Below are positions 1,292 through 60,041 of a stretch of 64,000 nt of DNA, piece by piece; the stretch's first letter is position 1; each line of letters opens with the position of its first letter. This DNA is from Candidatus Collierbacteria bacterium. GTDB taxonomy: Bacteria; Patescibacteriota; Microgenomatia; UBA1400; JACPES01. The stretch covers positions 345,154-409,153 of the forward strand of contig JACPES010000003.1 of the NCBI GenBank assembly GCA_016183365.1, read 5' to 3'. The notes under the pieces were generated by a model. It worked only from the letters and a program-made list of their open reading frames with translations. It did not search any database and was not told the DNA's origin. Made by a program: the position numbers and the translations under genes.

Positions 1292-1320
1292 AAATCATGA
1301 AAGCATTAAAACAAAATGCT

Positions 1321-1350
1321 CTAATGCTCCAATGTTCTAATGCTCTAATG
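1321..1350. repeat. 8-nt tandem repeat (ctaatgct / ccaatgtt) x~3.7 ending in the preferred ATG start 1348
   Basis: ctaatgct ccaatgtt ctaatgct ctaatg. Confidence 0.75.
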
Positions 1351-37465: not shown

Positions 37466-37779
37466 TTAGAATCAGAATCTTCAAGGATGTTGAATCCTGA
37501 TAAGTAGATCCTGGGCCAATCCCGGCGCATGCGTTCCAGGCCGTTTTTACGGTTGCAAATGCCGCTTGTCGGACAATAATAGCGAATATATTGGTCTAAT
37601 ACTTGGCTTGCCCATTCTTTATCCGAAATGCCCTGGGTGGAACTGACTGCTCGATGTATCATCGGGATAAGATAGAACAGAATTATCACCAGAACGATTA
37701 ATTTTAAGTCCTTCGTGTAAGTCATTGTGGTCGGCGTTGATAAACGATGTACGAAGAATTTTGGAAAACTGTCTCCCAA
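37462..37779 (-). CDS. Small hypothetical protein with one predicted TM helix
   Basis: ORF only; overlaps 3' end of upstream gene; no recognisable motif. Confidence 0.25.
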   Translation of the reverse strand: MGDSFPKFFVHRLSTPTTMTYTKDLKLIVLVIILFYLIPMIHRAVSSTQGISDKEWASQVLDQYIRYYCPTSGICNRKNGLERMRRDWPRIYLSGFNILEDSDSK

Positions 37780-44494: not shown

Positions 44495-45438
44495 AAAAAA
44501 TCGTGCTCATTTCGGGGGTCGGCGGCTCTCTCTTTCCATACTTTATTGAAAAGTTAGAAAAGAAATATCGTCTGGTGTTAATTGACTCAAATGACGTTGT
44601 CAAACACACATATCCAAACTCCAACATTATTGTCGTTCCTTCAGTCAAGGACCCGCAATATAGAACGGTCATAGATAAACTGATCAGAAATCTTCACGTT
44701 GACTACTATATTCCTTTAATTGATGAAGAGATTCTTCAGGCAATCGAAATTGCCAAAACCCAGCGAAATCTTAAACTTATTGCTCCCAACCAATCATTCG
44801 TTCAATTGTGTCTTGATAAATTTCGTCTCATGAAGAAATTAACACAGCTTCAAATCTCCCAAGTTTTGACATGGAGAGCAGACAGGGGGCCAGCAAGGCT
44901 TTCTTTTCCAGTCTTCCTCAAGCCGATCACTTCGCGCGGCAGTCGAGGGGCGCGACGCATCGATAATATGGAGCAACTCCAAGCTTACTTCTTATTTGAG
45001 TCATATTCCAAGTATGACGTTATGATTCAAGAGTATCTCGAGGGAGAGGAATACACGGTGAGCGTCGCCGTCAATAATCTCAATCATTTAATCGCCATTG
45101 TCCCTAAACAAGTGATTCTCAAGAAGGGGATTACGTTGCATGCCGTTACCAGGAAAAATGAAATTATATCAGCGATATGCCGTGTCATCGTTGACAAACT
45201 GAAACCTTACGGTCCATTCAATGTTCAACTGAAAGTTTGTAAAGACCAAGTGAAAATCTTTGAAGTGAATCCCAGGTTTTCTACAACCTCGGTGCTAACC
45301 TGCGAAGCTGGCGTCAACGAATTTGACTTATGTATGAAACTATATGGGAAAACAAGTATCAAAGAGATAGACTCTTATCAGGAAGGATTATTCCTTTACC
45401 GCCGTTGGGAAAATTGTTTCTATGAGCTTAAACCGTAA
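44491..45438 (+). CDS. ATP-grasp domain ligase
   Basis: FPVFLKP...SRG...IQEYLEGEEYTV...FEVNPRFSTTS ATP-grasp motifs. Confidence 0.6.
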   Translation: MKKIVLISGVGGSLFPYFIEKLEKKYRLVLIDSNDVVKHTYPNSNIIVVPSVKDPQYRTVIDKLIRNLHVDYYIPLIDEEILQAIEIAKTQRNLKLIAPNQSFVQLCLDKFRLMKKLTQLQISQVLTWRADRGPARLSFPVFLKPITSRGSRGARRIDNMEQLQAYFLFESYSKYDVMIQEYLEGEEYTVSVAVNNLNHLIAIVPKQVILKKGITLHAVTRKNEIISAICRVIVDKLKPYGPFNVQLKVCKDQVKIFEVNPRFSTTSVLTCEAGVNEFDLCMKLYGKTSIKEIDSYQEGLFLYRRWENCFYELKP

Positions 45439-46327
45439 AAAAATTCTTCTGGTTGGCGGTACCGGTTACATAGGTACTGCGCTTGCGAAAGAATTGCATG
45501 ATGACTATGCAGTTGTTGTTACCGGAAGAACTATTGGTAACCGGAAGACCGGATTAATGCTCCGCCTTGATTTTTCTAACGAAAAAAGCGTGGAAGAAGT
45601 TCTTTCAAGTGAACGCTTCGATATCATTATTGTTTTAGCCGCGCGCATAGAGATTTCTCACCCCCGCGAATTGGATTTTCAAGATCCTATTTTTCAAGAC
45701 AATGTATGGGGACTCAATCGGTTTTTGCGCCGGGCTTGTTTTTTGCAAAAGCAAGCAAAGCAGATTTTTATTAGTTCGATGACTGTTTATGCTTCCGATC
45801 TCAAAAGTCCGGTTTCGGAAAATGCTCCACTTTATCCGCTTCATCCCTATGGACTATCGAAGTTGATGGGGGAACAAATTTTTAGTTACTACGTTGTTAA
45901 CCACGATCACAGCGGTGTGATTTTTAGACTTCCGGGAATTTTTGGCGGTAACAGAAAAACCGGGTATTTATACCATCTTGTGAACAAGCTTCACACGTCT
46001 CAAGATATCATTCTTGACTCCGCCGGACTTGGATTTTGGGAAAGTTTGCATCTATATGATTTCGTAAACATGTTTGGGGAATTTCTCCGTAATTATTCAT
46101 TTTCTTCAAAACTTGAAGTGTTCAACATGGGTTACGGGGAAGAGACAGATTTCATTAAAACCGCTCATACGCTCAAAATGCTCACCGGATCATCAAGCCG
46201 AATCATTGTCAAACCAAAAGATTATCGAAAATTTTTTATGAGCAACCGGAAGATCGCGCGTTATGTAAATGTAGAGAAATACTCTTATCATCAGGCGTTG
46301 AAACAATTACTTAAGGAACAAAAATGA
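45422..46327 (+). CDS. NAD-dependent epimerase/dehydratase-like SDR
   Basis: KILLVGGTGYIGTALAKEL; YGLSKLMGE (YxxxK). Confidence 0.55.
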   Translation: MSLNRKKILLVGGTGYIGTALAKELHDDYAVVVTGRTIGNRKTGLMLRLDFSNEKSVEEVLSSERFDIIIVLAARIEISHPRELDFQDPIFQDNVWGLNRFLRRACFLQKQAKQIFISSMTVYASDLKSPVSENAPLYPLHPYGLSKLMGEQIFSYYVVNHDHSGVIFRLPGIFGGNRKTGYLYHLVNKLHTSQDIILDSAGLGFWESLHLYDFVNMFGEFLRNYSFSSKLEVFNMGYGEETDFIKTAHTLKMLTGSSSRIIVKPKDYRKFFMSNRKIARYVNVEKYSYHQALKQLLKEQK

Positions 46328-47058
46328 AATTTGTGATTGGAGATATCCATGGAGAGATAACAAAATTGAAACAGCTTGTCAGCCAAATGTCGCGGTATCC
46401 CATTGAAGAGCTTTTCTTCGTTGGTGACTATTTGGATAAGGGGGAAAATTCCAAAGCAACTCTTTTATTTCTGCAAGAAATAGCGACACATTTCCGATGC
46501 ACGTTTCTTCAAGGAGATCACGAGTATGCCTGGCTTCGATTCCTTAAGTGCGGCGAATATGAACAATTCTTATTGCGTTACGGTGGAAAGACAACAATGA
46601 GAGACTTTGGCATTACCGACCTCGAACCAAAGATTGTTGAAAAAAAGCTTTATTTGCCATTTCAACATTTCTTTCAGCGGCTCCGACCCTATGTGGTGCT
46701 AAATGAATTTATTGTCTCCCACTCCGGCATCAATCCGACCTTTGCTACTCGGCCGCGGTGGGAAAGTCTGGGGGAAAAAGAGTTTGTGTTTCGGCGATTT
46801 GACTTCATTGGGTATGATAAGCTGGTGAAAGCGAGAAAGTTTATCTTTGGACATACCGCGTTCGTTTCTCCTTACTACGACGGGTGGAAAATCGGCATTG
46901 ATACTGGTGCTGTTTATCCACGCAGTGGAATCCTGACGGCGTTTGAGATAAACAAAGAGTATTTTCTGGACCATCAAGGATATACTATGAATCTATCCGA
47001 CATTAACTCTTCCGCTTGTCCGATCCTTGTCAATGTGGGAGAACAGAATGATGAATAA
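46324..47058 (+). CDS. PPP-family metallophosphoesterase (Ser/Thr-phosphatase / ApaH-like)
   Basis: GDIHG ... GDYLDKG ... GDHE signature triad of PPP phosphoesterases. Confidence 0.6.
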   Translation: MKFVIGDIHGEITKLKQLVSQMSRYPIEELFFVGDYLDKGENSKATLLFLQEIATHFRCTFLQGDHEYAWLRFLKCGEYEQFLLRYGGKTTMRDFGITDLEPKIVEKKLYLPFQHFFQRLRPYVVLNEFIVSHSGINPTFATRPRWESLGEKEFVFRRFDFIGYDKLVKARKFIFGHTAFVSPYYDGWKIGIDTGAVYPRSGILTAFEINKEYFLDHQGYTMNLSDINSSACPILVNVGEQNDE

Positions 47059-47740
47059 GATAGCTAGAGAAACTACTTTGATTGTTGCTGCCCATCCTGA
47101 TGATGAAATACTTGGAATGGGTGGAACGCTATTGAAATTAGCCCAATCCGGCCAGAATAATCTTCATCTTCTCTTTCTGTCTTTTGGAGAAGCCTCGCGA
47201 GGTAAAAAAGAAACAAATGAAGATTTAAGAAAACAGCAAGCTATAGCGGTTAGTAAAAAAATCGGCGCCCGTCTTCATCTAGAAGAAAACTTTCCCGACA
47301 ATGCCTTTGATTCCGTTCCGCTTCTTAAAATCATTCAGAAAGTGGAATATTACCTTAACATCATTAAACCCACGATTATTTATACCCACCATGGACAGGA
47401 TTTGAATGTGGATCATCGCCTGACTTTCCAGGCGGTATTTACTGCGGTCAGACCTTCGCGATATCCCTATCTCAAGAAACTTTATACGTTTGAGATTCTT
47501 TCATCTACTGAATGGCAAGTTAAAACATCCTCGACAGTTTTTCTTCCCAACACCTATGTTGATATTGAGCGATACCTTGAACCCAAAATCGAGTTGTTAA
47601 AAGAATACCAAAGAGAACTTTCGCCTTACCCTTTCCCCAGATCTGTGCAAGGGGTTAAAGCGTTGGCACAGTACCGAGGAATGGAAAGCGGATTAAAATA
47701 CGCCGAAGCATTTCAGTTGATTCGAGAGGTGCGGCCATGA
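47027..47740 (+). CDS. PIG-L/LmbE-family N-acetyl-sugar deacetylase
   Basis: LIVAAHPDDEILGMGGTL (AHPDDE motif); H..D.. downstream. Confidence 0.65.
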   Translation: MSMWENRMMNKIARETTLIVAAHPDDEILGMGGTLLKLAQSGQNNLHLLFLSFGEASRGKKETNEDLRKQQAIAVSKKIGARLHLEENFPDNAFDSVPLLKIIQKVEYYLNIIKPTIIYTHHGQDLNVDHRLTFQAVFTAVRPSRYPYLKKLYTFEILSSTEWQVKTSSTVFLPNTYVDIERYLEPKIELLKEYQRELSPYPFPRSVQGVKALAQYRGMESGLKYAEAFQLIREVRP

Positions 47741-48261
47741 AAGTTATTTTCTATGGGGGGCAAACCGCTGGCCTTGTAGTTTTCCTGGGTCTTGCGGCTC
47801 AACCGGATGTTCATATTGTCAGGGTAATTCCCCAAGATGACATTCTTGCCGGAGCGGCGAAAATTTTGCATTATAAAACAGATGATCTGGATAAATTGGA
47901 CGATATCTTGTATATCAAGAAACTCTCGAAAACCGCAGACGCAATGATTTGCTGTCATGGTCGCAAAATTCTAAAGAAAGAATTGACAGACTCCATACGC
48001 TGTATTAATTTTCATCCTTGTCTTTACAAATATAAAGGGGCTTTTCCTATTAAGAAACTTTTGGAAAATAAGGATACTAAAGCCTCTGTTGGTGCTCACT
48101 TCATGACCGAACGTGTTGATAAAGGGCCCCTTATTAAAGAAATTTTCATTAATCTTGATCAAAAAAAGATGAACAGCGAATGTGAAGTATACAACCAACT
48201 CTACCCAGTTTATTTAGAAGTATTGCAGGAGGCATTATTAGTATTACGGAAAGTTTTATGA
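47737..48261 (+). CDS. Formyltransferase N-terminal-domain protein (sugar N-formyltransferase-like)
   Basis: CINFHPCLYKYKG matching N-x-H...SLLP.YRG formyltransferase active-site region; 174 aa. Confidence 0.55.
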   Translation: MKVIFYGGQTAGLVVFLGLAAQPDVHIVRVIPQDDILAGAAKILHYKTDDLDKLDDILYIKKLSKTADAMICCHGRKILKKELTDSIRCINFHPCLYKYKGAFPIKKLLENKDTKASVGAHFMTERVDKGPLIKEIFINLDQKKMNSECEVYNQLYPVYLEVLQEALLVLRKVL

Positions 48262-49415
48262 AGTATTGTCGTCGCTGTGTTTTCCCAGATACAAAACCCG
48301 ACCTTTTTTTTGATAAAGAGGGAATTTGCGACGCTTGCCGCTCGAGCGAAAAAAAAGATCAGGGTATTGATTGGGAGGCCAGAAAACAAGAACTTGGAGC
48401 ATTGTTGGAGAAATACCGTTCCAAGGACGGATCAAATTACGACTGTATTATTCCCGTTAGCGGCGGTAAGGATAGCCATTATCAAACATATGTGGTCACT
48501 AAACTATTTCATCTTCGGCCGCTATGCGTTTGTTTTGAGCCGACGCTACCAACTGCGCTGGGAAGAAAAAATTTGCGTAATCTAAACCGCCTCGGCGTTG
48601 ATCTTTTACATATTAAGAGAGATCCTGTTGTTTATAAAAAATTGGTTATCGAGGGTCTTCGGCGCGTTGGGGATAATGAATGGCCTAACCATGTGGGAAT
48701 TTTTACTACGCCGGTTCAAATTGCGGTAAAATTTAATATTCCGCTTTTAATCTGGGGGGAAAATCCTCAAATAGAATATGGAGGTCCTGCTCGCGGACGG
48801 GTCGCCAAGATTCTAGACCGGAGATGGTTGGAGGAATTTGGGGGGTTGTTGGGGAACCGAGTGGAAGACATGAGAGAGAGTCTGGGGCTTAGCCGGCAAG
48901 AGATGCTGCCATATTTTTATCCCTCCGATCAGGCGCTGAAAAATGTTGGCGTTACCGGAGTATTTTTGGGATATTTTTTAAAATGGAATACCAGAGCTCA
49001 AATAGAATTGATGAAGAAATCAGGCTTTCAAACTCACCCCACTCATGTTGAAGGCACATACACCGATTTTGAGAATCTGGATTGTGACTCGATGACGGTC
49101 CACGATTATCTAAAGTTTGTCAAATACGGCTTTGGCCGGGGAACGGACCACGCCTGTCTGGACATTCGTTTAGGGCTTATCGCCAGAAAAAAAGGTGTTC
49201 GTTTAGTGGAGGAGTATGACGGGAAGTTGCCGCAAAAATCCATGAATCGGTTGCTTGATTATTTGGGATGGTCAAGGGAAGAATTTTTTAAAACGATTGA
49301 CCCTTTTGTAAATAAGATTGTTTTTGCTTTTAACTCAAATGGCCGCCCGAAACGCGCTTCTGATGGAAATCTCATTATGAAGAAAGAAATTATTGAAGCC
49401 AGAAGACGCCCATGA
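48258..49415 (+). CDS. N-acetyl sugar amidotransferase (WbuX/PseA-type PP-loop enzyme)
   Basis: CRRCVFPDTKPDLFFDKEGICDACRS zinc-ribbon then PP-loop YDCIIPVSGGKDSHY; followed by HisH/HisF-like pair as in wbuXYZ. Confidence 0.65.
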   Translation: MKYCRRCVFPDTKPDLFFDKEGICDACRSSEKKDQGIDWEARKQELGALLEKYRSKDGSNYDCIIPVSGGKDSHYQTYVVTKLFHLRPLCVCFEPTLPTALGRKNLRNLNRLGVDLLHIKRDPVVYKKLVIEGLRRVGDNEWPNHVGIFTTPVQIAVKFNIPLLIWGENPQIEYGGPARGRVAKILDRRWLEEFGGLLGNRVEDMRESLGLSRQEMLPYFYPSDQALKNVGVTGVFLGYFLKWNTRAQIELMKKSGFQTHPTHVEGTYTDFENLDCDSMTVHDYLKFVKYGFGRGTDHACLDIRLGLIARKKGVRLVEEYDGKLPQKSMNRLLDYLGWSREEFFKTIDPFVNKIVFAFNSNGRPKRASDGNLIMKKEIIEARRRP

Positions 49416-50026
49416 AACCTCGCGTCGCGATCGTGGATTACGAAATGGGAAATGTTTTTTCCCTTAAGAACGCCCTGGAATACTGCGGGGCGTTAGCGTT
49501 AGTAACTCGAAAACCCGATGAACTTCGTAGGGCCACCCACCTGGTTCTTCCCGGTGATGGGGCCTTCAGGACCGGAATGGAAAATCTTAAAAGATTTGGC
49601 CTGATTCCGATATTGGAAGAAGAGGTCCTTAAAAAGAAAAGACCGTTTTTAGGAATTTGCATCGGAATGCAGCTTTTGGCTCAAGAAGGAACCGAAGACG
49701 GCATCTGGGAAGGATTGGGGTGGGTAAAAGGGAAAATCGTAAAGCTGAAAGGACATTCGCTGCGTTTGCCCCACGTCGGTTGGGACGATATTACTTACAA
49801 AGAGAACTGCTATTTATTTTCGGGAATTCCACAACAGGCAGATTTTTACTTCATTCACAGCTTTTGTTTCGTCTGCAAAGAACGGCAAGACGTTATTGCT
49901 TCCTGCCGTTATGGGCAAAACTTCGCGGCGGCTATAGAAAAACAAAATATTTTTGGAACCCAGTTTCATCCAGAAAAGAGTCAGACTTACGGACTTAAAT
50001 TACTGAAAAATTTTATCTCATGTTAA
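49412..50026 (+). CDS. HisH-like glutamine amidotransferase subunit (WbuY-like)
   Basis: VAIVDYEMGNVFSLKNAL...LVLPGDGAF...GICIGMQLL...FHPEKS class I GATase triad. Confidence 0.75.
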   Translation: MKPRVAIVDYEMGNVFSLKNALEYCGALALVTRKPDELRRATHLVLPGDGAFRTGMENLKRFGLIPILEEEVLKKKRPFLGICIGMQLLAQEGTEDGIWEGLGWVKGKIVKLKGHSLRLPHVGWDDITYKENCYLFSGIPQQADFYFIHSFCFVCKERQDVIASCRYGQNFAAAIEKQNIFGTQFHPEKSQTYGLKLLKNFISC

Positions 50027-50781
50027 AAACTCGTGTCATTCCCGTTTTGTTGTATCAACAAGGGCGATTGGTGAAAAGCATCCGTTTCAAAGAGCATCGG
50101 AATTTAGGAAATCCTATTCAAACCGTAAGAATTTATAACGCCAGAAACGTCGATGAATTAGTTATTCTTGATATAACCAAAACGCCGGCAGGAAAGGAAC
50201 CCGAGTATAAAATGATAAAGGAAATGGCCAGGGAATGCTTTATGCCGCTGGCCGTCGGGGGAGGAGTGCGATCCCTATCGATTGCCAGGAAACTTTTTTT
50301 ATCCGGCGCGGATAAGATATGTCTAAATTCAGCTGCGATTGAAAATTCCGGACTGATAGGAAAAATTTCCAGAATGTTCGGAAGCCAAAGCGTCATTGTC
50401 TCCATTGATGCGAAAAAAAGAAACAATCACCGGTATGAGGTTATTACTCGATGTGGAACCCTACCGACAGGACTGGATTCGGTGGAATGGGCGAAAGAAG
50501 CAGAGCGTCGAGGGGCCGGGGAAATTTTCTTAACCTCGATTGACTGCGAAGGGGCGATGCAGGGATTCGATCTTGAATTGATCCGAAATATCTCTACAGC
50601 CGTAACCATTCCGGTGATTGCCCATGGGGGAGCCGGAACCCCGTTGGATTGTGTCGAAGCAATTGGGGCGGGCGCGTCTGCGATAGCCGCGGCCAGCATT
50701 TTTCACTACACTCACGCGACTCCTCAAGTGGTTAAACAGGAGCTTAAAGCTGCCGGATATCCGACAAGAAATAAATTATGA
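50020..50781 (+). CDS. HisF-like cyclase/synthase subunit (WbuZ-like)
   Basis: [18 protein letters not shown]...DELVILDIT...(beta/alpha)8 HisF pattern, IAHGGAGT. Confidence 0.75.
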
Positions 50782-52664
50782 ACCACCTTTTTTTTGTAAC
50801 TACTGAAAAAGAAGCAGAAGAAACTTTTCGCCGCATTACCCTATTGGCAAAAAGTGATCAATGGGTTGTCGTCAGCAATAGTCCCATTGCCAACCGCCTG
50901 CTGGAAAATTACCGTATTCCATTCTATGACAGCGGGGTATTCTTTCCCCGAGGAAAAATATTGCGCAGACATCAGATTCGTCTAGCCCGGTATACTAAAA
51001 TCTGGGCTAAAGAAGCCGGAATTAATAAATCTCTTCGGTATGGCTCATATCAGCTCGACGAAATCGTCAGCTATAGTTTAAATCTGCATCTTTCTGAAAT
51101 TGAGCACTCGCTTCTTACCGCCAAAAATATTATTGATCGATTCAAACCAAACACTATTCATGTCAGCGCCCGTTGGACGGAGTTACCATACCGGCTATAT
51201 CAATCGGAGATGCTCAATCTTGAAAATCCGGCGCTTTATTCTCTTTGCCGTTTACAAAGAATTCCAGTTCAAAAATTTATCGATACTAAACTTTCGCTTA
51301 GATACTGGTGGGATACGTTTTTAGTTGCCACTCGACCTATTTTTGGTTTTGGCCGCGATTGTTTTAAACGATTAAACCTGATAGAAAGAAAATTGCCCAG
51401 ATTGGCCCCACTGGTGATATTCGCTCATTATTACCATTTAACCAGTCTCATCCCATTTTTGCAATCTTGTCAAAAAAACAAGATCAATTTTTCGTTGGTC
51501 GGCAAAACGTCTCCAGAGCAAAAAGCTGATGCCAAAAAACATCAAATTCTATTCCTTCCCTTGGAACAACTTCTCGAGCAAACGGCAAAATCCCCTGTTG
51601 TTTTTCTGACACATATCATGAAGTTCTGGTGGCTTTGGACTCGCTCCGAGTCCCGACTCCGCAAGGTGTTCTCCTCTTTCCATCCGTTATATTGGCTATT
51701 AGTCCGAGAAAAATTAAAACATTTGTTTCTGGTAGAATTTCCTCGAATTATTAGTCATCTTGATTTGGGATATGCCTTGTTTTCCCAACCGGGAGTGAAA
51801 GTGATGTTGACTATGGCCAGCGCCGATGTTCTAAGCCGTAGCTATACCGGCGCCGCGGCTGCGAATGGTAAAACTGTCATAGAACTGCAGCATGGCTTCT
51901 TGGTGTTCGATGAAGAATATCCATTTCGGTTTCACCATATCCATGCGGTTTGGGGGCCTGCCCTGAGAAAGCTGATGAAGAAAGCGCCGTTTCCGCCATC
52001 GAAATTAAAAGTGACCGGATTTCCCCTGTTCGATAAGTATCAAAAACCATTTGCTCAATTAAAAATGAGACAAAAAGGCCGGTTATTAATTGGGATTAAG
52101 CCATCGGACAGAGTAATACTTATTCTGGCCGTTTTTCCGATTGCGGCTGATCGCTTGCTTGCCAGAACCTCACCTTATCAATTTTTGACTTTGATTAACA
52201 AAGCGCTTCGGCAGACTAAAAAACATTGGACAATTATTTTTCGTCCTCATCCTTCCGTAGACGCCCAATGGGTAAGGAATTTCCCTTTTTCTCCTTTGGT
52301 TAAATTAATCTATGATTCTCGGCAATTTCCTCAAGATCAAATTATTGCCGCCAGCGATATTGTCGTCGGGAATTTCACTACAGCCCTTATTAATGCCATT
52401 GCAATGAGAAAGCCGATATTACTTTATCCATTTAGCGACCCCGCGGCGGTGAAACTAATGTCTCATCCGATTGTAACCACCAAAGCCGTTAGCCCTTTTC
52501 ATTCTCAAGCCCAACTTGTTTCGCTTCTGACTAGCGTTTTCTCCGATCAGAAATATCGCTCCGCCATGAGGCGGGGCCAACAGCAATTTCTCAAAAAATA
52601 CTGCGGGTTTTCCCGAACCAGCGCTGCTGACAATTTGATTACTCTTTTAAAACAATATTACTAG
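50778..52664 (+). CDS. Two-domain GT-B-type protein of KpsC/KpsS-TagF-like class with HP motif (candidate nonulosonic-acid transferase)
   Basis: 628 aa; C-terminal half has LKVTGFPLFDKY ... IIFRPHPSVD ... AASDIVVGNFTTALINAIAMRKPILLY; paralogous to 52670 and 56255 genes. Confidence 0.45.
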   Translation: MNHLFFVTTEKEAEETFRRITLLAKSDQWVVVSNSPIANRLLENYRIPFYDSGVFFPRGKILRRHQIRLARYTKIWAKEAGINKSLRYGSYQLDEIVSYSLNLHLSEIEHSLLTAKNIIDRFKPNTIHVSARWTELPYRLYQSEMLNLENPALYSLCRLQRIPVQKFIDTKLSLRYWWDTFLVATRPIFGFGRDCFKRLNLIERKLPRLAPLVIFAHYYHLTSLIPFLQSCQKNKINFSLVGKTSPEQKADAKKHQILFLPLEQLLEQTAKSPVVFLTHIMKFWWLWTRSESRLRKVFSSFHPLYWLLVREKLKHLFLVEFPRIISHLDLGYALFSQPGVKVMLTMASADVLSRSYTGAAAANGKTVIELQHGFLVFDEEYPFRFHHIHAVWGPALRKLMKKAPFPPSKLKVTGFPLFDKYQKPFAQLKMRQKGRLLIGIKPSDRVILILAVFPIAADRLLARTSPYQFLTLINKALRQTKKHWTIIFRPHPSVDAQWVRNFPFSPLVKLIYDSRQFPQDQIIAASDIVVGNFTTALINAIAMRKPILLYPFSDPAAVKLMSHPIVTTKAVSPFHSQAQLVSLLTSVFSDQKYRSAMRRGQQQFLKKYCGFSRTSAADNLITLLKQYY

Positions 52665-52669
52665 CAAGA

Positions 52670-54508
52670 TCAACAACAAGATATTTTGGCAGAGATATAC
52701 TCCATGATTCGTTGGCTGGACTTACCATCAAGTTTGTAACAAAAATCTTGAATGAATGAATCTTGATATTTGGTAAGCATATTTGGGTTGGAGATGAAGC
52801 TATTAATTGCCGGAATCAGCTCGTCAAGCGAATAGACTCCGAGAGCCGCTTTACTGGTTGCATAGGGTTCGTAATCGCGGAAATCATGGATGTTTAGGTA
52901 AATCAAGGGTTTGTGAACGAGGATGGTTCGGATTCCGGCCGAGGTAGATTGAGCGATGATAATATCGTGTTGATTGATGAGTTGGTTGGTATCTTTTTGG
53001 CTCCAGCGCAGAGGATAATTAACCATTGGTTGTGTCAATGTAACTAATTGGGAATGATTTTCAGAGGGGTGAGATTTGAGCGTCACGCGGATATTTCGCG
53101 TTTTTAATTGATTCAGTTCCCGAAAGACGTCGAATAGGATTTCTTGATTTGGAAACTGGATGAATGGATTATACGCGGAGAGAATAAGAATGCTGATTTC
53201 CTTTTTATCCATCAACGATTTGCGAGTAGAATTTCCTTTTTTGGCTTTGTAAATATAAGAGTCAAAATCCGGATGTCCGGTAACAACGCAATTAAGCCGC
53301 GGGAAATCCTTTTCCATAATCCGTTTCTGAAAATTTCCCCAAACAAAAAGTGTATCAGTTTCCTCAAAGAAAAAGTCGCAAAACGTGTTTCCCTGGGCAT
53401 CATGAATCATCAGAGTATAAGGAATGTTTTTTCTCTTGGCGAAAAACATGAGGGCGGTGTTGAAAGGATCCATATTATTAGAGGCAAGAATGAAGTTGAA
53501 TGGTTGTTGCCGATAGTGCCGGCTGATGAAACGATAGTTTTTGGTTAACTCATTGATAAATACTGATGTGCAATATGCAAGGTATGGCCCGATCATCTGC
53601 CAGAGAGAAATGTTCAGTTTTCGTTCAAAAAATTTTTCTTTTATTTTCTTAGGAAGAAAAAGAAATCTCAAAAAAACGTGAGTCGTCAGAAAAATACTTG
53701 AGGAAAAATCAGAGAGAGACAGCGATCGGTTGATAGTATTTAGATTGATAAATGACATATTGGCTTTCTTGAAAGTTTGTTGTTGTGAGACGCTTAATTT
53801 TCCCACCGGAACGAAGGCCCACTTTTTTTTAAACCGGTGAATCAACGGAATCATATTTATGAGCATATGGAGAGAAGCGGAAATAAGCACTGTCGGGGTG
53901 GTCTTTTTGCTATCCCTTATCGATGATCTTGTGTAAGTTACCGATCGGATTCCATTAATGATTGCTTCCACTATATTTTTTACAAACAGTGTTTTTAATT
54001 CGAGATAGTGATGATAACGCTGAAATATTAATAGTGTTATAGAAATATTTCGTTGTTTAGCACGACCAATCAATACTTGCCGCAGCAAACTAAATTCTTG
54101 ATTATGCGTTTTCTGCAGCAGCGGCTCATAGAGTGTATCTGACGCATAAATCACCGTGGGATGATAAATATTCAAGATGCGTTCGACAATATTTTTGCTC
54201 CTCACAATGTCAAGAAGAAAATATTTAAGCGCTTGATGAATAGGAAAGCGATAGTCAATTTTTTGTTTTAAGATTTTCGAGACCGCGGGTTGGTTGACGA
54301 ACTGTTCAGAGATCGAGAACGCTTTGGCCAATTCGGCTTTTGTCCTCTTAAGGTCCATGAATCGGCTCAACCGTTGGTAGGGGATATGCTGCCGTTCAAG
54401 GTACGTGAACGTATCGACCCCGTCGGCGATTATTCGAATCCCTTTCATCGGATGCCTAGACATGAATTGCTCGGCATCTTGCTGGTTTAACAACAATGCA
54501 ATGTTCAT
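52670..54508 (-). CDS. Two-domain GT-B-type KpsC/KpsS-TagF-like protein with HP motif (paralog)
   Basis: 612 aa; VVTGHPDFDSY ... VTLKSHPSEN ... shared pattern with 50778 gene. Confidence 0.45.
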   Translation of the reverse strand: MNIALLLNQQDAEQFMSRHPMKGIRIIADGVDTFTYLERQHIPYQRLSRFMDLKRTKAELAKAFSISEQFVNQPAVSKILKQKIDYRFPIHQALKYFLLDIVRSKNIVERILNIYHPTVIYASDTLYEPLLQKTHNQEFSLLRQVLIGRAKQRNISITLLIFQRYHHYLELKTLFVKNIVEAIINGIRSVTYTRSSIRDSKKTTPTVLISASLHMLINMIPLIHRFKKKWAFVPVGKLSVSQQQTFKKANMSFINLNTINRSLSLSDFSSSIFLTTHVFLRFLFLPKKIKEKFFERKLNISLWQMIGPYLAYCTSVFINELTKNYRFISRHYRQQPFNFILASNNMDPFNTALMFFAKRKNIPYTLMIHDAQGNTFCDFFFEETDTLFVWGNFQKRIMEKDFPRLNCVVTGHPDFDSYIYKAKKGNSTRKSLMDKKEISILILSAYNPFIQFPNQEILFDVFRELNQLKTRNIRVTLKSHPSENHSQLVTLTQPMVNYPLRWSQKDTNQLINQHDIIIAQSTSAGIRTILVHKPLIYLNIHDFRDYEPYATSKAALGVYSLDELIPAINSFISNPNMLTKYQDSFIQDFCYKLDGKSSQRIMEYISAKISCC

Positions 54509-54538
54509 TGGTATCTGTCCAATGCTATAGTATAAACC

Positions 54539-55312
54539 GTGGTCAAGGGAAAAAAGATCGTTGCAACTATTGAAGCGCGGATGGCGTCCACCCGTCTTCC
54601 CGGCAAAATTATGTTTCCGTTTGCGGGAAAGCCGGATTTAGAGATGATGATTGAGCGCGTCAAACGCGCTTCGCTACTAGATGAAGTTGTGGTGGCTACG
54701 ACCACAAATCCAAAAGACGATACGATCGCGACGTTATGCCGTCGGCTTCAAGTTTCGCATTACCGCGGAAGCGAAGAAGATGTTTTAAAGCGGTTAGTCG
54801 AAACAGGTAAATCGGTTAATGCTGACATCATTGTGGAAACAACTTCCGACTGTCCGGTGATTGATTGGCGCCATATCGACTATCTTGTCAATCTATTTTT
54901 CTCGGGGAAATATGATTATGTTTCAAACATTATTGAGCGATCATTTCCGCGCGGATTCGACACCCAAGTTCTCTCGCTGAAAGTTTTAGAAAAAGTTGAA
55001 CGCGTCGCCAAAGACCATGCGTATCGGGAACATCCGACGTTTTACATTTATACCCACCCAAAGGAATTTCGGCTCAAAAACTGGAAAGCGGAAGGAAAAA
55101 TGTTTTGGCCGGATCTGCGGGTGACGCTTGACACGAAAGAAGATTATCGGGTGTTGAGCGAGATTTTCGATCACCTCTATCCGGTTAATCCTGATTTTTC
55201 GGCGGAAGACGTTGTTGACTTTTTGCGGCAACATCCGGAAATTGTCAGAATCAATTCGGAAGTGACACAGAAAAATCCTCATAAGGAGTTAAGACGTGAT
55301 AAGAAAATATAG
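54539..55312 (+). CDS. CMP-nonulosonic acid synthetase (acylneuraminate cytidylyltransferase family; PseF/NeuA/LegF-like)
   Basis: KKIVATIEARMASTRLPGKIM N-terminal signature of CTP_transf_3 family; 257 aa; GTG start. Confidence 0.7.
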   Translation: MVKGKKIVATIEARMASTRLPGKIMFPFAGKPDLEMMIERVKRASLLDEVVVATTTNPKDDTIATLCRRLQVSHYRGSEEDVLKRLVETGKSVNADIIVETTSDCPVIDWRHIDYLVNLFFSGKYDYVSNIIERSFPRGFDTQVLSLKVLEKVERVAKDHAYREHPTFYIYTHPKEFRLKNWKAEGKMFWPDLRVTLDTKEDYRVLSEIFDHLYPVNPDFSAEDVVDFLRQHPEIVRINSEVTQKNPHKELRRDKKI

Positions 55313-56258
55313 AGTAGCTATCATCGGAGCTGGTAATATTGCTGCTCGATTTGACGAGTCGGAGAGTAAGGCTATTTTGACTCATGCGCACGCCTATTCG
55401 CTTCATCCCGGGTTTAAGATCTGCGGATTTGTTGATCTTGACGAGGAGAAAGCGAGATTTGCAGCGTTGCGATGGGAAGGGAGAGCTTATTCGTCTATCC
55501 CCAAATTGGTCGATAAAGAACGGCCGGAAATCATTTCTGTTTGTACTCCTGACGAAACTCATGAGAATGTAGTGAAACAACTCGAGGGAAAAAATATCCT
55601 CGGCGGAATTCTTGAGAAACCTCTTGCAGTTGATCTGGTTGGCGCGCGCGCAATTGCGACGTCTCCTCTCGTGAAGAAAGGAAAATTCCTGATGAATTAT
55701 TCCCGACTTTTTGTTCCTGAATTTCAAAAGTTGAGGCGAGATTATCGCAAGGGGGTATACGGTCGGTTGGTTTCGGCAACCGGATACTACGGAAAAGGAT
55801 TGATTCATAATGGATCTCACATGATCAGTTTACTTTTTTGGTTGTTTGAGGGCATTAAGGTTATTAAAAAAATTTCTTTAATCAATGATTTTACGAATGA
55901 TGATCCGAGTGTTTCTGCGGTCCTGCAGTTTTCGGCCGGGGCAAAGGGTGTTCTTCATGCGATTGATAGTCGCTTGCACACGATATTTGAACTGGATTTA
56001 CTCTTTGAAAAAGGGCGTGTGAGAATGGTAGATAGTGGTCATAAACTTGAGGTTTATGAACTTGAAAAAAGCAAGAGATATTTGGGGTATACAGCGATGA
56101 ATCCGAAAGAAGTCATCACCACGTCGCTTGGTCGGTCGTTGTCATTCGCGGTTGAAAATTTATATCACTGGTTGGAAGGAAGCCAACCTCCGCTTTCTAC
56201 AGTTCAAGAAGCGTTTAATGTACAGAAAATTTGTCAGGATATAATTCTTTCTAAATGA
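55296..56258 (+). CDS. Gfo/Idh/MocA-family NAD(P) oxidoreductase
   Basis: YRVAIIGAGNIAARF Rossmann; EKP motif (LEKPLAVD). Confidence 0.65.
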   Translation: MIRKYRVAIIGAGNIAARFDESESKAILTHAHAYSLHPGFKICGFVDLDEEKARFAALRWEGRAYSSIPKLVDKERPEIISVCTPDETHENVVKQLEGKNILGGILEKPLAVDLVGARAIATSPLVKKGKFLMNYSRLFVPEFQKLRRDYRKGVYGRLVSATGYYGKGLIHNGSHMISLLFWLFEGIKVIKKISLINDFTNDDPSVSAVLQFSAGAKGVLHAIDSRLHTIFELDLLFEKGRVRMVDSGHKLEVYELEKSKRYLGYTAMNPKEVITTSLGRSLSFAVENLYHWLEGSQPPLSTVQEAFNVQKICQDIILSK

Positions 56259-57466
56259 GTACGGTGAGACTACCTCGCAGCAAGCTGCGGGGCATCTTTC
56301 AATCTATGAGGCGAAACCCCGCACCGAAAGCCCCCATGATAAAACCCATGTATCCTTTGCAGCAAGCCCTCCGAGTCGGAAGGCAAGCCGCGGGGTTTTC
56401 TGGTGCTGGGGCAAAAAAAGTGTTGTTCTTTTCCCGCGATCCGGGCGGCGCGAACTGCATTATCCCCGTTTTCAAACGATTGGCGGCGCAAAAAACTATT
56501 ACGCCGATTCTCTGGGGTAAAGATTACTCAATTATCAGATACGGAGAAGAGAAGTTAAAATATAAAGATATTTCTTATCTTAACACTTTCCAGGTTATCT
56601 CTTTTCTTCAATCCAAACAAGTAAAGTTTATATTGACCGGCACGAGCTATGGAGATTATTCAGAACAGAAACTTTGGAAGCTTGCACGAAAACTTCATAT
56701 CCCAACAGCAGCGATCGTAGATCAATGGCTCAACTATCGGCTACGATTTACTTCTCTCGCTGGGAGAATAATCACTCCTGACAAAATTCTTGTCTTGGAC
56801 AATTTCGCAAGAAAGGAAATGATAGGGGAAGGATTTCAAAAAGCACAGTTATTAGTGGTCGGTCATCCTTCTTTCGATCTTCTGGGAGAAATGGTCGGTT
56901 GGGATAAGAAAAATGTTATTCGTCATAGACTTTCAATACTCTTTATTTGCGACGCCATTGAGCAAGCAGTGCACGTAAATTTTGGATATACTGAAAAAAC
57001 AATTATTACTGAATTACTCACGGCTTTCGAGAGCGTAAACTATTCAGACAAAATAGATCTGGTGATTAAATTACACCCAAAAAACGATCTCGATGCCATG
57101 AGAATGTTCATCAAGCGTGTTTCTCTTCCAAAATTGGTCAGCATTTCTCTCACTAAAACTACTCCCCTTCACAAACTCATACTGATATCAGATCTCGTCA
57201 TTGGGATGTATTCGATGGGACTTGTCGAGGCGTATCTCCTTGGCAAGCCAGTGATGAGCGTTCAGATCGGATTACGCAAAGAGGACGAATTCATTTTAAG
57301 CAGGAGAGGAGTAACTCGGACAATTCGATCTTCTCAGATACTTATAGAAGAATTTAATCGGTTTTTTTTGAAGAAAAGAGTAAGATACAAGAAGCGATTT
57401 CCAATCGTGCCTCATGCCGGAGAGAATGTTATAAAATTCATCATTGATACTATCAATCGCAAATGA
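56255..57466 (+). CDS. Single-domain KpsS/TagF-like GT-B protein with HP motif (true start probably GTG ~56420; upstream 160 nt GC-rich and probably non-coding)
   Basis: LLVVGHPSFDLL ... VIKLHPKNDL ... ISDLVIGMYSMGLVEAYLLGKPVMSV matching C-terminal domains of 50778/52670. Confidence 0.45.
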   Translation: MSTVRLPRSKLRGIFQSMRRNPAPKAPMIKPMYPLQQALRVGRQAAGFSGAGAKKVLFFSRDPGGANCIIPVFKRLAAQKTITPILWGKDYSIIRYGEEKLKYKDISYLNTFQVISFLQSKQVKFILTGTSYGDYSEQKLWKLARKLHIPTAAIVDQWLNYRLRFTSLAGRIITPDKILVLDNFARKEMIGEGFQKAQLLVVGHPSFDLLGEMVGWDKKNVIRHRLSILFICDAIEQAVHVNFGYTEKTIITELLTAFESVNYSDKIDLVIKLHPKNDLDAMRMFIKRVSLPKLVSISLTKTTPLHKLILISDLVIGMYSMGLVEAYLLGKPVMSVQIGLRKEDEFILSRRGVTRTIRSSQILIEEFNRFFLKKRVRYKKRFPIVPHAGENVIKFIIDTINRK

Positions 57467-58770
57467 AGAAAATATTGGCAATTAATGGGGGAAAGAAAGT
57501 CCGGCGGAAGAAATTTCCTTCATACAATACCATCGGCAAAGAGGAAAAACGGGCAGTCCTGAAAGTTCTCAATAGCGGCGTGCTTTCACAGTACCTTGGG
57601 GTCTGGGGGAAAGATTTTTACGGAGGAGAAGAAGTACGAACGCTGGAAAAAGAATGGGCGGCCCATTTCCATGTCAAACACGCGATTGCCGTCAACTCTG
57701 CGACCTCCGGCCTCTTCGCCGCGACCGGCGCGATCGGAATCGGTCCCGGAGACGAAGTCATTGTTTCGCCATACACCATGTCCGCATCGGTGATGCCGCC
57801 CTTGATCTACGGAGCGGTTCCCGTGTTTGCGGATATCGAGCAAGAGTATTTCTGTTTAGATCCGGCATCAGTTGAACAACGAATCACAGAACGGACAAAA
57901 GCCATTATCGTGGTGGATTTATTCGGCCAACCGTATGACGTTGAACGAATCAATAAAATTGCTAAGAAGCACAATCTTATTCTTATAGAAGACGCTTCTC
58001 AAGCGCCCGGAGCGGCATATCAAGGAAAATTCGCCGGTACATTGGGAGACATCGGGATATTTTCTCTGAATTATCACAAACATATCCATACCGGCGAAGG
58101 CGGAATGGTCGTAACGGATAACGATGAGCTGGCGGATAGGGTCCGATTAATTCGAAATCACGCGGAAAGTATTGTCGAGGCAAAAGGAGTAAAGAATTTG
58201 ACGAACATGGTTGGATTTAACTTTCGGATGACGGAAATTGAGGCGGCGATTGCCCGATGCCAGCTGAAAAAATTGAAATCTCTTCTGAAATCTCGTATTA
58301 ACGATATTGAGTACCTGACGAAAAGACTAGAAACAATTGAAGGATTGCGTCCGCCCCGCGTCCGCCCCGGATGCACCCATTCATTTTATGTCCATCCCAT
58401 TTTGTACGACCAACGTGTCACCGGTGTCCCCCGCGACAGATTCATTGATGCCGTCAAAGCCGAGCTGACGCCAACGCGAGGGCGAGAATCATGGGGGCCG
58501 TTAATAAGCTGTGGCTATGTAAAACCCCTATATCTTCTTCCGTTATTCCAAAAACGAATCGCGATTGGAGCCAACGGGTATCCATTTACAGCACCTCTTT
58601 ATTATGGCAACGTGACATATAAGAAAGGAATTTGCCCTGTGGTAGAGCAATTGTATGAGTATTCACTCTTTTATCATGATCTGGCCAAACCGCCGGTCAC
58701 AAAGAAAGATCTGGATGACATTGCCAAAGCATTTGTGAAAGTCAGCCGTCACGTTAAGGAACTACGATGA
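57463..58770 (+). CDS. DegT/DnrJ/EryC1/StrS-family PLP-dependent sugar aminotransferase
   Basis: AIAVNSATSGLFAATGAIGIGPGDEVIVSPYT...FSLNYHKHIHTGEGGMVVT. Confidence 0.75.
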   Translation: MKKILAINGGKKVRRKKFPSYNTIGKEEKRAVLKVLNSGVLSQYLGVWGKDFYGGEEVRTLEKEWAAHFHVKHAIAVNSATSGLFAATGAIGIGPGDEVIVSPYTMSASVMPPLIYGAVPVFADIEQEYFCLDPASVEQRITERTKAIIVVDLFGQPYDVERINKIAKKHNLILIEDASQAPGAAYQGKFAGTLGDIGIFSLNYHKHIHTGEGGMVVTDNDELADRVRLIRNHAESIVEAKGVKNLTNMVGFNFRMTEIEAAIARCQLKKLKSLLKSRINDIEYLTKRLETIEGLRPPRVRPGCTHSFYVHPILYDQRVTGVPRDRFIDAVKAELTPTRGRESWGPLISCGYVKPLYLLPLFQKRIAIGANGYPFTAPLYYGNVTYKKGICPVVEQLYEYSLFYHDLAKPPVTKKDLDDIAKAFVKVSRHVKELR

Positions 58771-58937: not shown

Positions 58938-60041
58938 CTAAGTTGAAAACAAGTGTTTCCAAGCAAAAGCTTCTCCTCTGGAGATTGATTGAGTCAATTT
59001 TTTCCCGATAATCATTTCAGTAAATTGAGGGGTAATTGATCCTTTTGGCGTCGGGCGCAAGGCTTCGACCATTGATTTGGTTAAGGCGGTGCCTTTCTTT
59101 AAATCTCGGGCAGCGCGCAAGCAGCGGCGCTGAATGATTGACGAGTCGGTTTCGGCGGCGACAACCTGTTTTTGTCCTGATCCAAGGATGGTTTTTACTA
59201 AATTGCCGTATTTTGTCATTAAAGCGAACGCTTGAGGTGTCATCGAAAATGGGGCGTCCGGAGTTTCGTCGTCGTTTCTTAGACACAAATGTTTTTCGAT
59301 GACACAGGCGCCGCGGGTGACGGCGATCAATGGGACTACTACGCCGTGGAAGGGATTATCTGCGTCGTAAGTATGGTCGGAATAACCATAAGCCACGTCG
59401 AAAGCTTTGCCCATGGTGACCATGGCTTCGACTCCGGCTTGTTCAATCGGAGAGAGAGCGTAATTTGTGATGCATTGAAGAAGAATAATTTGGTCGTTGC
59501 CGGCTTTTCTTAAAGTGTTAATTGCTAATTCTACGGTTGCCAAGTCGGAGGCGCCGGAAGAGATAATAATCGGTTTTCTTTTTTTGGCGATATATGTTAA
59601 AAGTTCAATGTAATCAATATCACCGGAGCCGATTTTGTATGCATTAACGTCGACTTTTTCGAGCAGATCAACAGATTCTTTATCGTACGGCGTACTCATG
59701 AATTCAATACCGACTTTTTTACAGTAATTGGCTAGCTTTTGATGCCAGTCAAATTTTAGTGACGCATCCTCATAAACTTCATAGACGCTTTTTTTCCATT
59801 TGGCCTGATGGGTGATCTTCATTGATTTAAATCCGACGTCGGAAACGATTTTGGGTGCTTGGAAAGTTTGGAATTTGGCAACATCGGCGCCGGCTTGTTT
59901 GGCGGCATCAATCAGTTTGAAAGCTTTACGAATATCTGGTTTTTGTTCTGGAGTCGGCATCCAGTTGGCGGATATATCCGCAATCCAATAAGGTTTTTTG
60001 CCATCCCCCACCCACTGCTTTCCGATTTTGAGACGTTTCAT
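58938..60041 (-). CDS. Nonulosonic acid synthase (NeuB/PseI/LegI family) with C-terminal SAF domain
   Basis: YWIADISANW...AGADVAKFQTFQ N-terminal NeuB signature; C-terminal SAF-like KKGTALTKSMVEALRP. Confidence 0.8.
   Translation of the reverse strand: MKRLKIGKQWVGDGKKPYWIADISANWMPTPEQKPDIRKAFKLIDAAKQAGADVAKFQTFQAPKIVSDVGFKSMKITHQAKWKKSVYEVYEDASLKFDWHQKLANYCKKVGIEFMSTPYDKESVDLLEKVDVNAYKIGSGDIDYIELLTYIAKKRKPIIISSGASDLATVELAINTLRKAGNDQIILLQCITNYALSPIEQAGVEAMVTMGKAFDVAYGYSDHTYDADNPFHGVVVPLIAVTRGACVIEKHLCLRNDDETPDAPFSMTPQAFALMTKYGNLVKTILGSGQKQVVAAETDSSIIQRRCLRAARDLKKGTALTKSMVEALRPTPKGSITPQFTEMIIGKKLTQSISRGEAFAWKHLFST

Follow-up and report, generated by a model that had tools for sequence, protein, structure and literature searches.

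This analysis concerns three open reading frames (ORFs), named A, B and C below, in a 64,000-nucleotide stretch of Candidatus Collierbacteria DNA (contig JACPES010000003.1 of assembly GCA_016183365.1, positions 345,154 to 409,153 of the forward strand), which is called the window throughout. Each of them encodes a protein with one glycosyltransferase B (GT-B) module and a His-Pro (HP) motif, and they stand close to the gene of a presumed cytidine monophosphate (CMP)-nonulosonate synthetase:

50778..52664, plus strand: protein A, 628 amino acids (aa), an N-terminal alpha/beta domain (by homology to B) and one GT-B module, HP at residue 491.
52670..54508, minus strand: protein B, 612 aa, an N-terminal alpha/beta domain and one GT-B, HP at residue 480.
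56255..57466, plus strand: protein C, 403 aa, a single canonical GT-B, HP at residue 274.

These are exactly the coordinates given by an earlier, sequence-only reading of the same DNA, which had also rightly called A and B convergent: their stop codons are separated by only 5 nucleotides (nt; 52664-52670). Protein C is identical to the NCBI protein HYU89_03320. The motifs proposed to unite the three proteins were found in all of them at the expected places, in the form V(T/V)G(F/H)P.FD, then x-HP and then (S/H)D..(V/I)..KP. In A they read VTGFPLFD (nt 52011-52034), RPHPS (HP at nt 52248-52253) and SDIVVGNFTTALINAIAMRKP; in B, VTGHPDFD (nt 53261-53284), KSHPS (HP at nt 53066-53071) and HDIIIAQSTSAGIRTILVHKP; in C, VVGHPSFD (nt 56855-56878), KLHPK (HP at nt 57074-57079) and SDLVIGMYSMGLVEAYLLGKP. 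BLASTP connects A with B at 3e-9 (23% identity over 223 aa), A with C at 1e-4 and B with C at 0.006, and among the 67 ORFs of the window the three match each other only. Comparison of the A/B-family alignment with that of the C family by hhalign gave a probability of 98.6% and E 1.4e-15 over 272 columns, residues 326-612 of B being placed on residues 112-400 of C. All of 64 C-family sequences have the His-Pro pair, whose conservation among 21 sequences of the A/B family is 90% or higher, and two aspartates of the N-domain are common to B (D347/D370) and C (D134/D156). Judged by their sequences, A, B and C are homologous, three diverged members of one GT-B superfamily, with similarity well beyond chance. 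The D/E-D/E-G motif, which had also been attributed to them, is absent in its literal form: no [DE][DE]G was found in A, B or C, and the conserved acidic positions are HDAQG in B, FDEE in A and an LDQW consensus in C. All three proteins are strongly basic and have no transmembrane segments.

The two long proteins had been described as KpsC-like, with a duplicated architecture, and C as the corresponding KpsS-like form. Neither description was supported. PF05159 gave no match to A, B or C at E<=1 and none in the 64 members of the C family at E<=0.01, and comparison of the N-terminal and C-terminal halves of A and B by BLASTP revealed no internal repeat (best E only 0.047 over 35 aa). The only link to KpsC is a profile match of the C family to the KpsC chain 6mgb with E 0.15. 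The two-module idea fails because the halves lack similarity, the model of B holds a single GT-B, and an exhaustive profile search turns up relatives of approximately 500 aa from which just the first domain is missing. Thus, A and B are two-domain proteins not in the sense of two transferase modules; each has one GT-B module behind a separable N-terminal domain of about 190 aa.

The AlphaFold2 model of B (predicted local distance difference test (pLDDT) 83, predicted template modelling score (pTM) 0.84) consists of an N-terminal alpha/beta domain (approximately residues 1-195) followed by one GT-B, whose N-domain (about 200-425) carries a long helical insertion (256-334) and whose C-domain occupies approximately residues 435-612. 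Since the A family aligns with the B family over the full length, one common architecture can be assumed for both, so that the GT-B fold suggested earlier is supported by models for B and C and by homology for A. The first 200 aa of B have no informative sequence match in the PDB, the extension being unrelated by sequence to PDB entries. PDB sequence searches with C, with B and with a distant relative were likewise uninformative, and profile searches returned only weak matches, to CapG/epimerase, KpsC, TarL and a diacylglycerol glucosyltransferase. In a Foldseek search of the PDB the model of B found epimerases of uridine diphosphate (UDP)-N-acetylglucosamine (GlcNAc), the UDP-GlcNAc 2-epimerases, first (2e-8), closely followed by TarL, TagF, CalG1, OtsA and MurG, with TagF/TarL at about 1e-7. 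The best conserved part of the B family is the nucleotide-binding domain, which is the usual transferase pattern.

Of the profile comparisons that had been envisaged for these proteins, Pfam Glyphos_transf was positive for A and B, and narrowly so (24.4 and 24.5 bits at a gathering cut-off (GA) of 22.1; profile positions 135-365 of 367, about 210-220 C-terminal residues of the proteins), PF05159 was negative as described, and the GT38 polysialyltransferase (polyST) model stayed below threshold for C. The NCBIfam model BFO_1060 (NF046086) gave 42 bits with A, 61 with B and 37 with C at a cut-off of 200, and TIGR04396 gave 36 bits with A, again below its cut-off. The A/B family comprises 190 clusters of 50% identity at E<=1e-30 and 2,741 at E<=1e-10, and its distant members reach 110 bits with BFO_1060, 90 bits with TIGR04396 and 31 bits with TarB.

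The genetic setting was established by a Pfam scan of the window ORFs (at least 120 aa upstream of position 44000 and at least 100 aa beyond) and from the genes called in the 8 kb past the window end, which were taken from contig L067 of the same genome. The genes referred to below are the following:

13609-14733: a bona fide non-hydrolysing WecB (325 bits).
42884-44494, plus strand: a PseC-GNAT fusion (PseC 484 bits, above the 423.5 cut-off).
42884..50781, plus strand: the upstream operon ending in A, first PseC-GNAT, ATP-grasp, short-chain dehydrogenase/reductase (SDR), metallophosphoesterase and PIG-L deacetylase.
to 50781, plus strand: later genes of the same operon, formyltransferase-like, WbuX amidotransferase (376 bits), HisH-like, HisF-like, then A.
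54539..55312, plus strand: a CTP_transf_3 cytidylyltransferase, the presumed CMP-nonulosonate synthetase (Pfam 90 bits).
55296..56258, plus strand: a GFO/IDH/MocA oxidoreductase, first gene of the triad described below (Pfam 57.5 bits).
57463..58770, plus strand: a DegT-family aminotransferase of 435 aa, third gene of the triad (Pfam 290 bits).
58938..60041, minus strand: NeuB-type nonulosonate synthase 1 (Pfam NeuB 255 bits, plus SAF).
60041-60961, minus strand: an RmlD-like SDR.
61019-61582, plus strand: a GNAT acetyltransferase.
61563-62678, plus strand: a second WbuX-family N-acetyl-sugar amidotransferase (369 bits).
62675 onward, past the window end, plus strand: an amidase (GatA-like).

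The location beside a gene for a presumed CMP-nonulosonate synthetase, pointed out in the sequence-only reading, holds. The CTP_transf_3 protein at 54539..55312, with the entry 6oew (labelled 'Cytidylyltransferase', 6e-42) as its best PDB match, is the sole cytidylyltransferase in the window and the next 8 kb, and is of the ulosonic-acid type. The start codon of A overlaps the stop codon of HisF by 4 nt. The start codons of B and of the cytidylyltransferase are 30 nt apart in divergent orientation (54509-54538; 29 nt in locus L008 and 71 nt in L005), which leaves little room for two conventional promoters together with ribosome-binding sites. The same relations recur elsewhere. Genes of the A/B type adjoin nonulosonate genes at every locus looked at: those of the A type come last after WbuX with HisH/HisF (window, L065) or WbuX with amidase (L066), or follow a PseB/DegT/NeuB/CTP cluster (L009), and those of the B type stand in divergent orientation next to the cytidylyltransferase gene in the window, L005 and L008. 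Each of the latter two loci has two A/B paralogs and one C, as in the window, and downstream of the cassette, here as in L005 and L008, comes an exporter made of ABC2_membrane and ABC_tran proteins. In the present genome both exporter genes come directly after the amidase and begin approximately 40 nt beyond the window (positions of about 64036-69758 in window numbering correspond to L067 12474-18196). Going by sequence and gene order, the A/B family is an uncharacterised architecture of approximately 600 aa tied to nonulosonate modification operons and ABC exporters.

Based on these data one can assume that A and B are good candidates for CMP-nonulosonate transferases that serve an exported surface polymer. 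The transferase candidacy proposed at the outset for all three proteins is thereby kept for A and B, on the strength of motifs, the marginal Glyphos_transf match and context, and is withdrawn for C, a constant triad gene across phyla. The C-terminal domain of the superfamily appears to be of the cytidine-nucleotide-donor type, like that of TagF/TagB, BFO_1060 and the polysialyltransferases. The HP histidine, whose position presumably corresponds to the TagF-type xHP (we take H444 of TagF to be the catalytic residue of its N-domain and H584 the phosphate-binding one), would contact the donor phosphate and help CMP to leave, and the shared aspartate pair of the N-domain would probably serve catalysis or sugar binding. 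In the proposed sequence of events, PseC-PseH, two NeuB synthases, one CTP_transf_3 enzyme and two acetamidino-forming WbuX systems would supply the CMP-nonulosonic acid(s); A and B, soluble, basic and probably membrane-peripheral, would add the activated sugar to a lipid-linked glycan or polymer at the cytoplasmic face; and the ABC2/ABC transporter past the window end would then export the product.

The same matches allow A and B to be viewed as genuine TagF-type polymerases of polyol phosphate or sugar phosphate, working with cytidine diphosphate (CDP)-linked donors and having nothing to do with the neighbouring nonulosonate genes. Both proteins exceed the Glyphos_transf cut-off, B carries the NCBI name 'CDP-glycerol glycerophosphotransferase family protein', the Foldseek search with B picked up TarL and TagF, and the adjacent ABC transporter is TagGH-like. 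We consider this very improbable: no gene of the TagD, TarI or TarJ type, as needed for a supply of CDP-glycerol or CDP-ribitol, was recognised among the Pfam-scanned window ORFs or the genes called in the 8 kb that follow, this whole region has a single cytidylyltransferase, which belongs to the ulosonic-acid type, genes of the A/B type are consistently operonic with nonulosonate modification genes, and the Pfam match itself is marginal and partial.

The AlphaFold2 model of C (pLDDT 88.3) is a canonical single GT-B with disordered residues 1-50. Its 50 best Foldseek matches in the PDB are all UDP-GlcNAc or UDP-diNAc-GlcA 2-epimerases (E down to 5e-13, template modelling scores 0.6-0.69, 15-17% identity). 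The profile matches of C itself remain under the respective thresholds, 24.8 bits for Pfam Epimerase_2 (GA 30.6), 15.2 for polyST (PF07388; threshold 23.3) and 16 for PseG (TIGR03590; cut-off 153.6), and Glyphos_transf does not match it. More can be learned from its family:

Pfam Epimerase_2: 54 of 64 members, best E 6e-10.
Pfam polyST: 29 of 64 members, best E 1.6e-8.
Pfam Glyphos_transf: 26 of 64 members, best E 1e-8.
NCBIfam BFO_1060: 56 of 64 members, best E 1.4e-16.
NCBIfam TIGR04396: 55 of 64 members, best E 2.1e-13.
NCBIfam NeuC: 13 of 64 members, best E 5.2e-5.
NCBIfam wecB: 6 of 64 members, best E 1.9e-6.

The alignment of C with E. coli WecB by hhalign (probability 48%) brings H274 of C to H213, D134 to D95 and E325 to E296, equivalents of E117 and E131 being not evident. 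The HP histidine of the C family coincides with the HP of KpsC ('vKvHPe') and with the HP histidines of archaeal and S. aureus epimerases, so the alignment expected earlier with phosphate-contacting histidines was reproduced for KpsC, the epimerases and WecB H213. The sequence-only reading had named best hits to unrelated families, for example UDP-GlcNAc 2-epimerases, with the HP away from catalytic positions, as an outcome that would speak against it; only the first half of this came true, as the best folds of B and C are such epimerases and yet the HP aligns to a functional histidine. Since it occupies a functional position in both classes, this motif cannot discriminate a transferase from an epimerase.

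The gene order around C is more informative. A survey of 8 metagenome loci and 51 loci of GTDB species representatives showed that the order GFO, C, 435-aa DegT is nearly invariant, GFO being immediately upstream of C; a GNAT gene usually follows DegT, and WbuX with an amidase or with HisH/HisF is often found after it. This triad is spread over at least 10 phyla, its hosts including Clostridium, Lachnospiraceae, Sporomusaceae and Veillonellaceae among the Firmicutes, Geobacteraceae/Desulfuromonadales, Acidobacteriota, Verrucomicrobiae, Planctomycetia, Spirochaetaceae, Campylobacterales, Alphaproteobacteria, Saccharibacteria and other bacteria of the candidate phyla radiation (CPR). Its neighbours are almost always PseB, PseC, a PseG-PseH fusion, NeuB and a cytidylyltransferase. 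Orthologs of the latter gene head the triad in L005-L008, and as two unrelated cytidylyltransferase types occur at this position, the conserved core is GFO-C-DegT. The cassette is contiguous in L005, L007 and L008, and the tail GNAT-WbuX-amidase has the same order there as in the window; NeuB-1 and the RmlD-like SDR form an opposite-strand insertion between DegT and GNAT that is found in this genome only and is absent at that place from L005 and L008. About 50 loci have the triad without any gene of the A/B type, and at least 11 of the surveyed loci are flagellin islands with a Maf-like gene, of Flagellin-Maf-(CTP-)GFO-C-DegT composition, also without a gene of the A/B type. Maf is an established nonulosonate transferase of flagellin (PMC7874193, PMC13317340).

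The N-domain of C, which is usually the acceptor side, is more conserved than the nucleotide domain (31 of 162 columns compared with 13 of 122 at the level of at least 90%), the reverse of what acceptor-diverse transferases display. Together with the constancy of the triad across phyla and its presence in the Maf islands, this argues that C handles one fixed nucleotide-linked sugar. Most probably it acts on a fixed nucleotide-sugar intermediate of a biosynthetic route and is not an acceptor-specific transferase: it would release or epimerise the nucleotide sugar in the manner of PseG, LegG or WbpI, or transfer the sugar to one invariant small acceptor. The partners of C are in themselves not very specific. 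The GFO protein (55296..56258) is weakly similar to inositol 2-dehydrogenase (IolG-like) and to UDP-GlcNAc 3-dehydrogenase. The DegT protein (57463..58770) scores 211 bits with PseC and 189 with the LegC family, both below cut-off; its best PDB match is 8gyh (4e-61), followed by aminotransferases for scyllo-inosose, perosamine and Kdo8N, and a lysine read from its translation (..NYHKHIHTGEGG) stands at what we take to be the pyridoxal phosphate-binding position of the DegT family.

Two models of the triad may be considered. In the first, it belongs to a second nonulosonate pathway running in parallel, where C may replace LegG or PseG; the presence of two NeuB genes and the lack of PseG here fit it. 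In the second, the triad may modify a nonulosonate or its CMP derivative after condensation, with C in a new role. The co-occurrence of one NeuB with PseG in most loci counts against the first model as a general explanation. Carried to its full extent, the first model makes C the nucleotide-releasing step, a hydrolase or 2-epimerase equivalent to LegG, NeuC or PseG, with CTP_transf_3 as LegF, DegT as LegC, GNAT as LegH, the second NeuB as synthase and GFO as an accessory oxidoreductase of the sort typical for Leg clusters. The uniformly Epimerase_2-type Foldseek matches, the position of Epimerase_2 as the commonest weak Pfam match of the family and the three residues aligned with WecB are in line with this, as are the two NeuB proteins of this genome, only 31% identical, the failure to find a PseG homolog in the 64-kb window or the next 8 kb, the duplication of aminotransferase and acetyltransferase, often also of cytidylyltransferase, that is usual for triad loci, and the GFO oxidoreductases that accompany neuC-type clusters in Aeromonas (PMC7874193). 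However, most triad loci combine a PseG-PseH fusion with one NeuB only within +/-7 kb, the NeuC and wecB models are much weaker than BFO_1060, the hhalign probability to WecB is low and equivalents of its E117 and E131 are not apparent, which leaves the complete scheme doubtful. The narrower idea that C is simply the PseG of this cluster was set aside: it suits the window, and it is weakened by the PseG-PseH fusions that coexist with C in most loci. Amination of hexose C3 by the triad before condensation was rejected on chemical grounds, since O3 of the hexose ends up as the ring oxygen in the pyranose form of the nonulosonate.

The opposite possibility is that all three proteins, including C, transfer nonulosonates from CMP, C being a KpsS-like or TagB-like 'primase' and A and B elongating a poly-nonulosonate. 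C is homologous to A and B, the best transferase matches of its family are BFO_1060 (1e-16), polyST (1.6e-8) and Glyphos_transf (1e-8), one of its homologs is named 'polysialyltransferase family glycosyltransferase' by NCBI, its 403 aa against the approximately 620 aa of A and B recall TagB and TagF, an ABC exporter is adjacent, and every locus of the CPR type has two A/B paralogs together with C. This scheme is improbable in our estimate, though still to be reckoned with, as it leaves unexplained the approximately 50 loci, flagellin islands with their own Maf transferase among them, where the triad has no A/B-type gene, as well as the invariable place of C between an oxidoreductase and an aminotransferase, the highest conservation across phyla on the usual acceptor side, the epimerase folds as closest neighbours of C and the missing PF05159 signal.

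From the observed homology, fold, motif alignment and neighbourhood we infer which donor is used, that A and B are transferases and what part C plays, and the joint interpretation, in which A and B transfer nonulosonates and C handles a fixed sugar intermediate within the triad, has in our opinion an even chance of being correct. Several facts weigh against it. In structure, B and C both come closest to epimerases and not to transferases, even if such a ranking may reflect over-representation of epimerase structures. The Glyphos_transf score exceeds the GA by only 2 bits and covers only the C-terminal part, the BFO_1060 and TIGR04396 scores are far under their cut-offs, and the literal acidic motif is missing. 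By profile, the C-terminal domain of C is closest to transferases (BFO_1060), which favours the view of C itself as a transferase. SpsB of B. subtilis, a TagB-like protein encoded beside a legionaminic acid (Leg) cluster, is not needed for Leg transfer (PMC7439481), and gene adjacency is therefore fallible as evidence. Finally, the source is a metagenome-assembled CPR genome.

Some features of the genes discussed deserve mention in their own right. The first approximately 52 codons of C (56255-56410) are in frame, have 57% GC compared with 39% in the rest of the gene and lack a counterpart in any homolog; the homologs begin at the stop codon of GFO. The RNA of this extension folds better than shuffled sequences (z -2.8) with a hairpin CCTCGCAGC-AAGC-TGCGGGG at 56273-56292; no Rfam family matched the extension, and a repeat search showed that it occurs once in the window. 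No further HP-motif paralogs were detected inside the window, and one lies just outside: after the exporter, L067 encodes a second NeuB (355 aa, the one 31% identical to NeuB-1, which itself scores 273 bits with PseI and 273 with NeuB, both under cut-off) and a fourth HP-motif GT-B paralog of 445 aa on the minus strand, with 'VYRFHPDD' and 'ADLVITTVSTT..KP'. The N-terminal 'AAHPSGARAILPL' of this paralog resembles 'SRDPGGANCIIPV' of C; a methyltransferase and a PseB-like dehydratase lie beyond it, and the order of exporter, NeuB and 445-aa gene is seen also in L005. The PseC protein at 42884-44494 is fused to a C-terminal GNAT with weak similarity to PseH, and in other phyla it is PseG that is fused with PseH. 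The two WbuX proteins (376 and 369 bits) have different presumed ammonia suppliers, HisH/HisF homologs for one (48258-50781) and the GatA-like amidase for the other (61563-64000), which may mean that two different acetamidino groups, or two sugars, are made. Triad loci of Clostridium and related Clostridia (L016, L018, L025, L031, flagellin islands) contain a FemAB/Acetyltransf_6-like gene of about 345-367 aa, methyltransferases and formyltransferases, one of them fused to NeuB (L031); this gene content hints at a flagellin nonulosonate decorated with aminoacyl or formyl groups.

The window as a whole is a glycan island with GT4, GT2 and PMT_2 transferases, many methyltransferases and two aminosugar sets. 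It is part of at least 72 kb of unbroken glycan-biosynthesis genes, more than 10% of the 588-kb contig of this CPR genome. Several PMT_2 (GT-C) enzymes and more than 10 methyltransferases are encoded here, together with a GT2+GT4 fusion (19447-21342), a fusion of an enolase-C-like domain with a methyltransferase (17468-19375) and nine ORFs of 368-641 aa without Pfam match, for example 1288-3123, 32816-34579 and 37722-39647.

To our knowledge, very few bacterial transferases of pseudaminic acid (Pse) and Leg are known (Maf/FlmG for flagellin, KpsS1 of GT118 and the TagB-like proteins of Tannerella, which are defined genetically), and we know of no identified polymerase of poly-legionaminic or poly-pseudaminic acid. 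A literature search found no paper joining nonulosonic or pseudaminic acids with Patescibacteria/CPR, and nothing useful on a triamino nonulosonate, the triad, PDB entries 8gyh and 6oew, or TIGR04396. Against this background one may tentatively propose, while regarding it as unlikely, that GFO-C-DegT(-GNAT) is an unrecognised, phylum-spanning branch of nonulosonic acid biosynthesis and that the A/B proteins are polymerases with TagF architecture which, together with the ABC exporter, make a poly- or oligo-nonulosonate surface polymer in a CPR bacterium. The GT-B protein of the C family, TagF/epimerase-like, may then carry out a novel reaction on a Pse-type intermediate linked to a nucleotide, such as one leading to a third amino group or to an alternative stereoisomer that is later used by the flagellin Maf. 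If this is true, the A/B proteins would be candidates for the Leg/Pse polymerases, a class that has long been missing. Independently of this, the triad probably accounts for some of the nonulosonate diversity of flagellins and surface glycans that still lacks an explanation. Its occurrence in cultivable Clostridium species, such as C. algifaecis DSM 28783 (L016) and C. aquiflavi (L018), makes the function testable.

Among the systems described so far, A, B and C are most like the HP-motif GT-Bs with cytidine-linked donors (TagF/TagB, BFO_1060 and GT38 polySTs), the cut-off of Glyphos_transf being the only one that A and B pass, marginally and partially, and other family cut-offs having failed. 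The UDP-GlcNAc 2-epimerases (WecB/MnaA/NeuC/WbpI, PF02350) are the closest solved folds for C and B, and the Epimerase_2-type LegG and NeuC are regular steps of nonulosonate pathways; C differs from them in its score under the GA, in the low hhalign probability and in the unclear equivalents of E117/E131. KpsC/KpsS (GT107), KpsS1 (GT118) and WbbB (GT99) are retaining transferases that use CMP-ulosonic acids as donors, and their genes are adjacent to nonulosonate modules (PMC4487303). Their HP aligns weakly with that of the C family (6mgb), and KpsC has two GT107 modules, unlike A and B with one GT-B and no repeat. The N-terminal Rossmann domain of GT99/107 enzymes is reduced and displaced (PMC12887879), whereas C aligns with canonical epimerases over its whole length. 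Enzymes of GT107, GT118 and GT99 match PF05159 (PMC12887879, PMC4487303), and A, B and C do not appear to be among them.

The BFO_1060 family of TagB-like Pse/Leg-derivative transferases from Tannerella forsythia (Tanf_01245 / TFUB4_00887, NF046086) shares with A, B and C the GT-B fold, the HP motif and the place beside a CMP-nonulosonate pathway, and is the best NCBIfam match of all three as well as of 56 of the 64 C-family members. Its proteins are genetically required for addition of Pse or Leg in Tannerella (PMC5420450). The alignment is limited to about 150 C-terminal residues with 37-61 bits against the required 200, and the Tannerella enzymes, of approximately 445 aa, possess DXD and D/E-D/E-G motifs; the latter motif is absent in its literal form from A, B and C, and A and B are longer, with approximately 620 aa and an additional N-terminal domain. 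With TagF/TagB/TarL (PF04464), A and B have in common (K/R)xHP followed by SD..(I/V)..(S/T)(S/T)...KP in the C-terminal Rossmann domain, the character of basic peripheral enzymes accompanied by an ABC exporter, and the coexistence of short and long paralogs. The difference lies in the donor, presumably a CMP-ulosonic acid and not a CDP-polyol, and in the marginal, C-terminal match. By analogy, the assembly logic of cytosolic GT-B, CMP-sugar supply and ABC exporter parallels that of TagF with TagGH in wall teichoic acid, of NeuS with KpsMT in group-2 capsules and of the poly-legionaminic acid O-antigen of Legionella.

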